Positions 9,201 through 12,200 of a stretch of DNA of 27,655 nucleotides are shown in pieces. Origin of the DNA: a virus (lineage: Duplodnaviria; Heunggongvirae; Uroviricota; Caudoviricetes); IMG/VR virus record IMGVR_UViG_2537562192_000021, positions 1-27,655 of that record, one strand, 5' to 3'. Positions within the stretch are counted from its first letter, which is position 1, and every line of letters starts with the position of its first letter. The position numbers were made by a program.

Positions 9201-12200
9201 GTTTATGAAGGCAGAAATCAAAAGAGAAGTTAAAAAAAGTATATTAGGTATAAGTAGCCAGAAATTAAGAACGTTAGTTATTTATGTCAGAACGTATTCT
9301 GAATTGAAAATGCCGTTTTGGCAGTGGGGTTATTTAGCACCCCATATTCAGTGTAAATACGATAGATTCTTTATACGCTACAAAGGTAAATACAAACGAT
9401 GTCGCTGGTGTTCTAAAGTTGTTTCTATCTTTTATTTGGCTGATGGCTTGATATTTTTCTGTTGGTCGTTAAATTATGGCGCTGTTTTTATAGGAATGGG
9501 CGCTGTTTTAATGTTGCTGTGTATATGGATGGCTTTTATGTTTTGGTTTCTTTTTCCGGGACGAGGCGTTATAAAGAAGTATAATTCCCAATTATTGAAA
9601 ATAGATGCAAGTAAGTATCAGGCCAAATGATATTACAGGTCTGATACTTTGCTTTTTTAAATCAGTGTTTTCAGACAAAACGAAGTCCTCCGTAAATTAA
9701 ACGGTGATAAAAAGCCCCTGGCTGAGCAGGGGCGAACTGAAGGATTAACGAGGTAAAGTGGGTGGGATATATCTGCCGATGCGGTCTTCTATGGTCGGCA
9801 GAATGCACATGCTGTCGCTGAAGCGGTCATGCAACTGGTAAACCAGTTTCGAATCCATTTTTTCGAGAGCAGGCATTAACTGCGCCCGCCAGATTTCATT
9901 GATGCGCCGGAAGTTATGACAGACGGCGCGGAGATTGTTGATGAACATCTCCTTCTCTGCGTCACTGACTGCTGTCTGCGCCTTCTGAATGCGTTTCGTG
10001 CTGCCGTTCCGGTAGAAGCGTTCCTGAGCAGCGACAGCCTCATCCACAGTCGGATAGCACCCGACGTAAACGCTTTTCTCTCCGTCCCATGCGTAAGCTC
10101 TGTACGGGTTGTATTTGCTCCGGTGATGGTAAACCATCTTCGGCAGACACTCCCTGTGTGGCGCCAGTATCGTGGAGGATTGCTGGTGCAGTTTGCGTTC
10201 GCACTCGATGAAGTATCGGCGGATCTGGCGGCCTTTTTCGTTGCGCTCCACCATCGCCAGTTCTTTGGCTGTATCGAGAGTGAGGTGGTAGTCCTTACAA
10301 AGAACATTTTTACGCTTTCCAGTTTTGGAAAACGTTACGATATAATCCTGATTTTCAACGAATTCATAGTCTGCAATTCGTGATGTAATCCACGCTGCAA
10401 ACACTTTCCCTACCCCAAGGAATGCGTGCAGATCGCGAGCATTGCAGAGCAGGGTGGTTTCGTTGGCGATAGCGCCGTTGAAAACGGGGATGAGTTGAGT
10501 TGCCATCACAGTTACCTCTAACGGTGAAATTCACCGCCACCACTGAGTTGCAAATCTCATATGGGTGGCGAACTGACGAGGTTTGCAATACCGGCGTTAG
10601 AGGAAACCGGCGCGCCGAAGCGCCCCCGCCAGCCCGCCATAATGCGAACGTGGCAAAGCTTGCGACAATAAAAAAGACGCTGGCGCGTCTGGTGTCGCCC
10701 CTAACAATTCCGGGTTGCAAATCCCGATCTCCATTTGGGAGATTCGGTGAGCATAAACCGGAAGGGGGCGATGAGTCAATATCGGGGTAGCAGGGCGACT
10801 GGGTGCTAACCAGAACAATACAGGTAGCTCCGGGCATATTCCCCTTTGCAAAAACACCCGGCGTTTAACCGGGCGTCTGTGAAGCAGGATTAAATCAGTG
10901 CTTCAGCATCAGCACCTTCGCTGATATCGTCGAAATCGTCAGCGCTTGCCACTCCGCCGCCAGCGAATGCATCGCCGTCTCGCAGGAACTGGACTCCGCC
11001 GAGTGAGGCATTAATGCGTTTACCGAAATTATTGTCCTGTGCCCAGATATCGATAATGGCGTTTACATAGCACCCTGCATAGGGACGTCCATCAGCCTGA
11101 ATTAGTGGCGAACGATCGCGATCAAGAACAGCTGGGCGCGCTTTGTTAGCAGCGTTCAGGAAGAAATTGCCGGGAAAGCCTTCATACTCTGCTTTTTCAT
11201 CACCATCATGCAGGCACAGATTGAATTTTTTCTCCAGTTGGTTATAAATGGACTCCCACTTCTCCCCCCATTTTTCCTTCGCTACCTGCTTCATAGCTTT
11301 ACGGATTTCTTCCAGTTGTGGGTGTTTGGGAGACATTAAAAATACTGCGGAGAAACGCGGATCGCCTTCGCCGTTTACAGTTTTAGCTTCAAACAGAGAC
11401 GGGAAGGCCAGACGAACATTGTTCAACTTCAGTTTCATGGGTATTTCCTTAAATCAGATGAGGTCTGCGGCGAGCGTATCGTCGGATACGTCGTCGAAAT
11501 CATTTACAGGGTTGATATTGAGTGCGGGGCGTGGGTCCGACTCGGGAACGACGGTTGGTTTACCATCAGCTCGAGTTATCAGTGCCTCGACTTTTGACCA
11601 ACGGCGCGGACTGGCCTTTTTGATAAGTTTTTCGGCTTTGGTTGGGCTAATCAGCTTAAGATCGAAAACCTCCTCGGTTTTATAACGGAACTGGTCTTTC
11701 AGCAGCGCGCGGGCGGCTTCTTCATCACTCCAGGCCCGGTTACCTTGTTTTCCTGTTACCAGTTTAAACCCCGGAACCGGATTTCCGGCATTGAGTTCAT
11801 TGTGAACCCGGTCCCGTACTGCCTTTAGCCAGGACTCAATAAAGTCGGCTTGGCTATAGATCTCCGCAAGCTGCTCAATGGTTAACAGAGGTACACGTGC
11901 GCTGGCATTGGTGATTATTTCGCTGACAGGCTTTGTCAGATCTTCAAAGTCGCTGGCCGCTGTTTGTAAATGCTGCATTTTCTGGGCAGTGCAAATAGCT
12001 TTTGCTTTACAGAAGCGGCACTGTTTTTCTCCAGGTATGAAGTTTTCCAGCGGTAGTGTCTCAATGCCTTCGCATTCAGCAATATTGAGAACAAGGATCG
12101 CACTGGTTGCGGCCTCCTGTGCTCGTTTACCGAAAGACTGAAGTTCCTGCACGGTTAACGACCATTCTGAAACGTGGTTGAGCCTTGGCTGGTGAATAAA

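Follow-up and report, generated by a model that had tools for sequence, protein, structure and literature searches.

How is the synthesis of the antirepressor-like protein Ant2 restrained in the prophage represented by the IMG/VR virus record IMGVR_UViG_2537562192_000021 (Caudoviricetes)? The stretch of DNA analyzed, referred to below as the window, comprises positions 1 to 27,655 of that record (27,655 nucleotides, nt). It is prophage DNA of E. coli, matched best overall by strain STEC435 (98.8% identity over 6 kb), and it carries two antirepressor-like genes, ant1 and ant2. The upstream regions, repeats, and RNA elements of both genes lie on the minus strand, and all positions are given in window coordinates. 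The interval 10507-10889 is exactly the intergenic leader of ant2, reaching from the ant2 ATG (10506) to the stop of the gene at 10890-11438. A sequence-only reading of this leader had suggested that the ant2 Shine-Dalgarno sequence is sequestered in a long-range stem and that a 21-nt element is shared by both ant upstream regions. Judged from its sequence, the ant2 leader very probably encodes a previously unannotated C4 antisense RNA preceded by an IsrK-like decoy RNA. We consider it highly likely that the whole arrangement constitutes a P1-type "immunity I" RNA circuit, in the form found in enterobacterial prophages (the IsrK form).

An Rfam scan of the minus strand detected C4 and isrK in the ant2 leader and sRNA-Xcc1 in the ant1 leader (Table 1). 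Matches to RalA, STnc310, a group II intron domain, and microRNAs were far under their cut-offs and were treated as noise. The mature C4 is predicted to span 10638..10564, its ends being taken from the annotated 77-nt C4 of P1. Folded alone, C4 adopts the structure of its family at −43.3 kcal/mol, with a long closing stem, a tetraloop hairpin (hairpin 1), a second hairpin, a single-stranded junction, and a 3' CCACC tail. The loop of hairpin 2 presents the antisense segment b' (UUUCCUCUAACG, 10606..10595), which contains the upstream 9-mer of the sequence-only reading, CCUCUAACG, and the junction presents the second antisense segment, a' (AUUGCAAA, 10589..10582). Each segment has a target just downstream: b' is complementary to b2, which overlies the ant2 Shine-Dalgarno sequence, and a' to a2, which is displayed in the loop of a small hairpin. 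The b'-b2 duplex, at −13.6 kcal/mol, is the best among 12 possible partners. Both targets are mirrored upstream of C4. The duplicated sequence GTTGCAAATC holds AUUUGCAA twice, each time in a hairpin loop, giving the identical sites a1 (10722..10715) and a2 (10555..10548). A slightly weaker second b target, b1 (UGUUAGGGG, 10706..10698), forms 8 base pairs (bp) with b', including one G-U. These are the only two bipartite a..b sites in the window, both on the sense strand and both within the ant2 leader. The duplication had been noticed before, and its two copies are real; one of them begins at 10714 as given, and the other at 10547 rather than 10546.

The complementarity that led to the stem proposal is likewise real. 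CCTCTAACG (plus strand, 10515-10523) is the exact complement of CGTTAGAGG (plus strand, 10595-10603); each occurs once in the window, and the inverted repeat does not extend outward. The inverted repeats described between these partners also exist, as stems of the C4 fold, of the a2 hairpin, and of the CGGUGAAUUUCACCG hairpin. A perfect inverted repeat of at least 9 nt is not rare in itself, since it is present in 216 of 1000 dinucleotide-shuffled 383-nt leaders (21.6%). For this reason that statistic was set aside, and the 9-mer specific to the Shine-Dalgarno sequence and the co-variation tests were used instead. A complement to the 9-mer covering the Shine-Dalgarno sequence arises in only 0.085% of shuffled upstream leaders. 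The view that this complement is functional-looking, and not due to chance, is supported, and its role is most likely to hold Ant2 translation off.

Homologous loci also bear on the model. Twelve further loci were fetched, from Shiga toxin (Stx) phages, SfV, Salmonella phage 118970_sal3, a Vibrio phage, and E. coli prophages. In all twelve, isrK is followed 22-58 nt on by C4, and in 11 the next gene is ant, BRO-N, or antirepressor-like; in PhiR46_1 it is a small unnamed open reading frame (ORF). Co-variation was examined over 12 loci, namely, the window, P1, and ten of the fetched loci. Across this set, 98.5% of the cells of the C4 fold are paired and 15 of 28 pairs show compensatory changes, a result reached by none of 500 shuffles, and slid controls give about 40%. 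The 12 loci have nine distinct b' and seven distinct a' segments, and each of these is matched by the locus' own b1/b2 and a1/a2. The two segments recombine independently; ASU11 and SfV, for example, have a common b' and different a'. The MAFFT alignment (A1) misaligns the variable segments a', b', a2, and b2; its use was therefore limited to the stems of C4 and to the alternative helix described below, and antisense co-variation was tested by duplex energies and permutation. For each of the four pairings, a'-a1, a'-a2, b'-b1, and b'-b2, 0 of 200,000 permutations reach the observed sum. In every row the cognate partner scores at least as well as any non-cognate one; apart from one a'-a2 case, ties are confined to loci with a common element.

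A promoter scan found one sigma-70-like promoter (Table 1) and no other promoter-like site on either strand between 10400 and 11000. This site has the same position as the P1c4/P51b promoter annotated in P1, likewise recovered by the scanner, and the homologues have TTGAY..TAYACT at the same place. It lies upstream of both pairing partners, so that the two can be on one transcript, as the sequence-only reading needed them to be. For the C4 model this point is less critical. In P1, C4 is a processed, trans-acting RNA that represses antirepressor synthesis (PMC12197685), and a start downstream of the 10595-10603 repeat would therefore not refute it. Downstream of the promoter, the elements follow in the order isrK, 25 nt, C4, and ant2. 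The terminator scan places a terminator-like hairpin with U6 at 10691..10670, at the end of the isrK match.

We propose the following sequence of events. Transcription would start near 10743 on the minus strand, and many transcripts would end at the 10691-10670 terminator, yielding a ~74-nt IsrK-like RNA that carries the a1 and b1 copies of the C4 targets. Read-through transcripts would carry C4 and ant2. By analogy with P1 and Salmonella, C4 would fold into its long closing stem and two hairpins and be cut out as a stable RNA of ~75 nt, whose b' and a' may pair with b2 and a2 on the ant2 mRNA. Since b2 covers the Shine-Dalgarno sequence, ribosomes would be excluded and Ant2 would not be made, which should keep the prophage repressed. 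The IsrK-like RNA, being complementary to a' and b', could relieve the block, as Gifsy-1 suggests, either through an alternative C4 structure in cis or through titration in trans. There is no icd cistron here, and the AUG inside C4 (10640) opens a frame of only 27 codons that has no Shine-Dalgarno sequence and stops ~50 nt before ant2; control is therefore most simply explained by direct occlusion of the ant2 Shine-Dalgarno sequence.

Several observations weigh against this proposal. The assignment of Ant2 as an antirepressor has Pfam and annotation as its only basis. The isrK score is barely over its cut-off, and the overlapping match to c4-a1b1 (RF03163, "a1, b1 targets of C4"), at 29.8 bits, is under the cut-off of that family; the isrK scores of the homologues range from 49.6 to 78.6 bits. 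Pairing of a' with a2 covers only 7 bp (−6.1 kcal/mol), and for some non-cognate partners the score is similar. The leader of ant2 in the window contains no coupled frame resembling icd or orf45, and the details of the P1 and Gifsy-1 models are therefore not transferable unchanged. In addition, the published Gifsy-1 model explains activation through translation of orf45 and not through titration of C4 (PMC4825925).

The alternative that survives best is the one originally suggested, a plain intramolecular long-range stem between 10595-10603 and 10515-10523 that hides the ant2 Shine-Dalgarno sequence without any separate regulatory RNA. Its complementarity is exact over 9 bp (P of about 0.00085 for that 9-mer), and a common transcript is possible because both partners lie downstream of the only promoter-like site. 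The C4 model uses the same base pairs, and cis action on read-through transcripts would be compatible with it. We nevertheless consider the plain stem improbable. The upstream partner is a hairpin loop in a fold supported by covariation, so that the pairing would be a loop-to-strand contact and not a nested stem. When the full leader is folded, a check that the stem proposal invited, the stem appears in neither the minimum free energy (MFE) structure (−103.3 kcal/mol, z = −4.0) nor the centroid; b' pairs with b1 there, as part of an a1b1 pairing with a'b' in cis. The plain stem also leaves the a'/a2 pair and the upstream duplicates a1 and b1 unexplained, although these co-vary, and homologous RNAs are stable processed species (the annotated 77-nt C4 of P1 and STnc1160 of ~80 nt). 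Thus, blocking of the Shine-Dalgarno sequence is supported by the 9-bp pairing and its co-variation, whereas the nested cis stem is not supported, its upstream partner lying in the hairpin 2 loop of C4. When C4 and the ant2 5' untranslated region were folded together in RNAcofold, no interaction resulted (ddG of 0), an uninformative result because its model disallows loop-to-strand contacts.

The same region offers a second helix that excludes the C4 fold. The 3' strand of the C4 closing stem (10564-10572) is complementary to GGUGGCGG, a downstream GGUGGYG-type strand, and the helix so formed encloses a2. Over the 12 loci, 92.5% of its cells are paired and three pairs are changed on both sides, with slid controls at 33-72%; with moderate confidence, we regard the helix as conserved across the loci. 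In transcripts not yet processed, it and the C4 fold would be in competition, and it could serve as a switch for processing or refolding.

Among known systems, the C4 circuit proposed here is best compared with P1/P7 c4-ant and Gifsy-1 IsrK-anrP. The immI c4 RNA of P1/P7, which controls icd-ant, belongs to the same Rfam family and has the same fold. The order of elements on one strand is also the same: promoter, a1, b1, C4, a2, b2, start codon. In P1, a2 lies 3 nt after C4, b2 lies 22 nt after a2, and b2 ends 10 nt before the ATG; the corresponding distances in the window are 8 nt (from the predicted mature C4), 24 nt, and 8 nt. In both, the first cistron downstream has its ribosome-binding site within reach of b2, which overlaps it, specificity is determined by a' and b', and the regulated gene is of the antirepressor type; the P1 record labels b2 "repression of icd ant translation". 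RNase P acts at the 5' end in the processing of P1 C4. The two systems also differ. P1 has icd, a small cistron on which ant expression depends, whereas the window and ten non-P1 homologues have no icd-like cistron between b2 and ant. A predicted intrinsic terminator between b1 and C4 is clear in the window and in the enterobacterial homologues, whereas the same scan finds none in P1. A C1 operator was not identified at the window promoter, and the a' and b' sequences differ from those of P1, which predicts a different specificity. Finally, the Ant proteins probably belong to different families, AntA/AntB being that of the window.

Gifsy-1 supplies the second analogue. There, IsrK acting in trans activates anrP translation more than 100-fold, a processed STnc1160 RNA of ~80 nt lies downstream of IsrK, and an inactive "structure A" of isrK-orf45-anrP has been shown experimentally (PMC4825925, Hershko-Shalev et al. 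2016). As is predicted for the window, a short IsrK RNA has its own terminator and the read-through product is the antirepressor mRNA. In both systems IsrK is complementary to RNA just downstream, and structure prediction for the full transcript joins the middle of IsrK to this downstream RNA in cis; the MFE fold of the ant2 leader is of the same kind as the translationally inactive structure A. The first AUG of Gifsy-1 orf45 (A107) corresponds to the conserved AUGG at the 5' end of C4, which in locus L006 lies at +106 from the isrK model start. Because of this coincidence we infer that "orf45/STnc1160" is likely a C4 homologue. The Gifsy-1 paper never mentions P1 c4 and likens the locus to P4 CI/seqA (PMC4825925), and a 2025 review lists P1 c4 and Salmonella IsrK as separate systems (PMC12197685). 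The comparison made here links the two: IsrK is the a1b1 target-mimic part of the C4 circuit.

The likeness to P22 suggested by the sequence-only reading is less apt. P22 immI likewise exerts tight negative control over antirepressor synthesis, partly by RNA. The sar RNA of P22 comes from the opposite strand, where its transcription runs across the ant ribosome-binding site, and the Arc and Mnt repressors act in addition. The window shows no such arrangement, with no plus-strand promoter-like site in 10400-11000 and all RNA family matches on the sense strand. In P4 CI with seqA/seqC, a processed leader RNA pairs with up- and downstream sites on the same transcript (PMC4825925), but the RNA family is different and the outcome is premature transcription termination of replication genes and not occlusion of an antirepressor ribosome-binding site. 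The APSE phages of Hamiltonella also carry c4 and isrK upstream of a BRO/Ant-type gene, in a DUF2800/DUF2815/family-A DNA polymerase replication module like that of the window, and some of them have sRNA-Xcc1 upstream of another gene. Their host and sequences differ, and their a' and b' are reported to match the DNA polymerase gene at its 3' end and the stretch preceding BRO, whereas both sites of the window are within the ant2 leader.

A different explanation is that a small protein encoded in the leader controls ant2 by translational coupling, either the 58-amino acid (aa) "hypothetical protein" annotated in RefSeq or a frame of the orf45 type that opens at the AUG at 10640. Open frames do cross the leader, RefSeq places a coding sequence (CDS) across isrK and C4 in STEC435, and an early stop codon in orf45 lowers anrP activation in Gifsy-1. 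The frame from 10640 lacks a Shine-Dalgarno sequence, and its termination ~50 nt before ant2 makes coupling of the orf45 type unlikely; ant2 has its own Shine-Dalgarno sequence within b2. Substitutions among the homologues keep base pairs (15 compensatory), and several phage records fuse the upstream frame to the ant CDS in a manner that resembles over-extended annotation. We judge control by a leader-encoded protein to be very unlikely. In the STEC435 record (L015, 3766-3942), RefSeq annotates no RNA and gives only the 58-aa CDS across isrK and C4. In four further loci (L003, L004, L006, and L007), the AUG inside C4 shares the frame of ant, and the annotated ant CDSs consequently reach back across C4 and isrK. 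The 58-aa CDS is probably spurious, and the ant CDSs of these phage records look over-extended. The assignment of C4 and isrK is mostly of corrective value: to a region in which RefSeq has no RNA genes it adds two known regulatory RNAs, on which antirepressor synthesis probably depends.

What, then, is the 21-nt element common to the two ant leaders? The sequence AGCTCCGGGCATATTCCCCTT is indeed present, exactly, at 6772-6792 and 10826-10846. It is found nowhere else in the window, even at 3 mismatches, and no match with 3 mismatches allowed arose in 100 shuffles. At the first position, it is part of a complete sRNA-Xcc1; at the second, it lies in a 5'-truncated stretch that gave no Rfam match at E ≤ 5 and fails the sRNA-Xcc1 model. 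The ant1 copy is thus a full family member and the ant2 copy a remnant. The remnant extends from hairpin 1, at its apical loop, as far as the 3' closing strand; missing from it are the AAUACAA motif and the 5' closing strand, and it lies directly next to the terminator-like hairpin at the end of the upstream gene. In locus L013 (E. coli O121), a complete, divergent Xcc1 occupies the position of the remnant, directly upstream of the same isrK promoter, and Xylella fastidiosa carries Xcc1, isrK, and C4 in tandem (PMC12189769). Taken together, the alignment of the remnant, the complete copy in L013, and the Xylella tandem indicate that the 21-mer of the ant2 leader is a recombination remnant and not a common control site of the ant genes. 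The truncated Xcc1 was probably left upstream of the ant2 promoter by cassette recombination. For the Xcc1 of L013 (821-909), a strong cognate decoy-like site lies upstream (728-772), and downstream no cognate target is clearly present; it looks as though an isrK-C4-ant cassette has taken the place of the gene that this Xcc1 once preceded. For the loop of the truncated Xcc1, a search of the window for a target (the complement of UACCUGUAUU) gave, besides its own complementary strand, only single-mismatch matches in unrelated places. That the 21-mer, present in the same form in both leaders and at no other place in the window, is a protein-binding operator co-regulating ant1 and ant2 is the least likely of the alternatives, given that it coincides with the structured sRNA-Xcc1 core (the 3' side of hairpin 1 and the 5' strand of hairpin 2), that the similarity extends past it along the RNA, over ~56 nt, that its positions are not equivalent (47-67 nt upstream of the ant2 −35 hexamer versus ~120 nt downstream of the ant1 promoter-like site), and that a complete Xcc1 stands at that position in a related locus.

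sRNA-Xcc1 has been reported since 2010 from Xanthomonas campestris and integron cassettes, either as a trans-acting, virulence-linked small RNA (sRNA) or as an element "upstream of symE", without an established mechanism. A stable Xcc1 RNA of ~88 nt has been mapped experimentally in Xcc 8004 (PMC2996969). The family shares with C4 a closing stem, two hairpins, a 3' junction, a CACC tail, and a preceding (U)AUG; the C4 covariance model does not detect it. In the ant1 leader, the loop of Xcc1 hairpin 2 is CUUCAUAGAU (6764-6773), and the 3' junction is UAGUUGA (6753-6759). The predicted target of these segments lies over the ant1 Shine-Dalgarno sequence (Table 1). Upstream, the decoy ACUAGAAAAUCUAUG would form a duplex with Xcc1 at −26.0 kcal/mol. 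The 6860-6944 stretch that holds this decoy matched no Rfam family. An element of decoy, hairpin, and U-run of this kind, with cognate sequence, recurs upstream of Xcc1 in many viral contigs (among loci L016-L134); it is not in Rfam and follows an IsrK-like logic.

The relation between Xcc1 and its neighboring segments recurs in other viral loci. When viral contigs were scanned for the Xcc1 core motif, 105 unique loci were obtained, and the 54 with distinct antisense segments were tested. Against the 100 nt downstream of Xcc1, cognate duplexes give −17.7 kcal/mol compared with −13.3 kcal/mol for non-cognate ones (0 of 20,000 permutations), and most of them end 5-8 nt before an ATG. Against the upstream region, the values are −22.9 and −16.0 kcal/mol (again 0 of 20,000 permutations), and 31 of the 54 loci have z below −2; these upstream sites are typically followed by a hairpin and a U-run, 60-100 nt before Xcc1. 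Whole-segment duplex tests were preferred to parsing of the hairpin 2 loop by itself, because folding of isolated segments mis-assigned the hairpin in many loci and gave weak separation. In contrast to the published roles, the antisense segment (hairpin 2 plus the 3' junction) here co-varies with the ribosome-binding site of the next gene and with the upstream decoy. This pattern suggests, at the level of sequence, that Xcc1 works like C4. On balance, we favor the view that sRNA-Xcc1 represents a second class of C4-like, same-strand RNA directed against the ribosome-binding site of a downstream gene (ant, BRO, possibly symE), with the decoy RNA as its IsrK analogue. On the same view, ant1 and ant2 would be under two orthogonal locks, Xcc1 and C4, respectively, and the 21-mer would be a scar of cassette exchange. 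We found no published statement of such a mechanism for Xcc1, the original sRNA-Xcc1 paper (RNA Biology, 2011) being outside the coverage of the search. If correct, it would provide a testable mechanism for an RNA family spread across phages, integron cassettes, and plant pathogens. It would also imply that genes of the antirepressor type, or toxic ones, have repeatedly been combined with a self-contained control cassette made up of a decoy, an antisense RNA, and a target, and that immunity specificities would be defined by the variable loops of such cassettes.

The ant1 leader including Xcc1 (6690-6950, minus strand) is 87-92% identical to the antirepressor upstream region of the Stx phages 933W, VT2-Sakai, Min27, and P13374; among those Stx phage records listed, sRNA-Xcc1 is annotated only in LC710661.1. 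In view of this identity with the ant leader of 933W and VT2-Sakai, the Xcc1 result may bear on Stx prophage induction.

Table 1. Positions of the RNA elements, signals, and genes of the ant2 and ant1 regions.
Feature	Position	Strand	Details
sigma-70-like promoter	10750..10779	minus	TTGACT, 18 nt, TATGCT; promoter scan; predicted start near 10743
IsrK-like short RNA	10670..10743	minus	Rfam isrK RF01394, 50.9 bits vs cut-off 50; marginal
Parts of the IsrK-like RNA			5' hairpin; a1 in hairpin loop 10715-10722; b1 10698-10706; predicted terminator 10670-10691
C4 antisense RNA	10561..10644	minus	Rfam RF01695, 70.6 bits vs cut-off 45, E 4e-12, full-length match 1-87
Small hairpin presenting target a2 in its loop	10544..10559	minus	a2 AUUUGCAA (10548-10555); 7 bp with a'
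Alternative-helix strand GGUGGCGG	10534..10541	minus	complementary to C4 closing-stem 3' strand 10564-10572
Target b2 over ant2 Shine-Dalgarno GAGG	10515..10523	minus	CGUUAGAGG; 9 perfect bp with b'; 8 nt before ATG 10506
ant2, AntA/AntB-family antirepressor-like, 253 aa	9745..10506	minus	Pfam PF08346, 87.4 bits; RefSeq "antA/AntB antirepressor family protein"
Intrinsic-terminator-like hairpin and U-run closing upstream gene 10890-11438	10850..10878	minus	RNAfold: 11 bp, −19.2 kcal/mol, then UUUUU
5'-truncated sRNA-Xcc1-type remnant	10794..10849	minus	holds 21-mer 10826-10846; aligns to 3' ~56 nt of the 6736-6824 copy
5' part of ant1 leader	6860..6944	minus	promoter-like site 6915-6944; decoy ACUAGAAAAUCUAUG 6894-6908; terminator-like hairpin and U6 6860-6887
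Complete sRNA-Xcc1 upstream of ant1	6736..6824	minus	Rfam RF02221, 62.5 bits vs cut-off 53; holds 21-mer 6772-6792
Predicted Xcc1 target over ant1 Shine-Dalgarno	6698..6730	minus	UAACUA (6715-6720) and AUCUAUGGAGG (6701-6711); duplex −23.8 kcal/mol; ant1 ATG 6695
ant1, AntA/AntB	5931-6695	minus	

The two antirepressor-like proteins are themselves closely related. Ant1 and Ant2 are 89% identical; their last 177 residues (~530 bp of coding sequence) are identical, and their N-terminal AntA domains differ. The sequences suggest recent gene conversion or recombination between the ant1 and ant2 cassettes. A single prophage thus seems to have two nearly duplicate antirepressors, each guarded by an RNA lock of a different kind. 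In strain LH50-c, the 451-nt leader is 100% identical and the sequence differs downstream.

Both cassettes are embedded in a replication module with the order DUF2800, DUF2815/Enc34, ant2 cassette, opposite-strand gene, family-A DNA polymerase, ant1 cassette, ANR, DUF4406, VRR-NUC, and Arc. The gene upstream of the ant2 leader (10890-11438) encodes an Enc34-type single-stranded DNA-binding protein (DUF2815, Pfam PF10991), and the hairpin that closes it was absent from the output of the simple terminator scan. When 5500-11500 of the window is compared with E. coli genomes, the cassette positions flanking the DNA polymerase gene have varying cargo (Ant, BRO-N, TIR-domain, Nmad5, and HNH genes), and these positions look like exchange hot spots in the replication module. 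Between ant2 and the DNA polymerase gene, an ORF on the plus strand (9004-9630, about 200-208 aa) has no Pfam match and is a hypothetical protein in STEC435. Elsewhere in the window, the plus strand carries a tRNA-Arg(UCU) gene at 19397-19473 and an STnc100 sRNA at 20888-21096 (183.6 bits).

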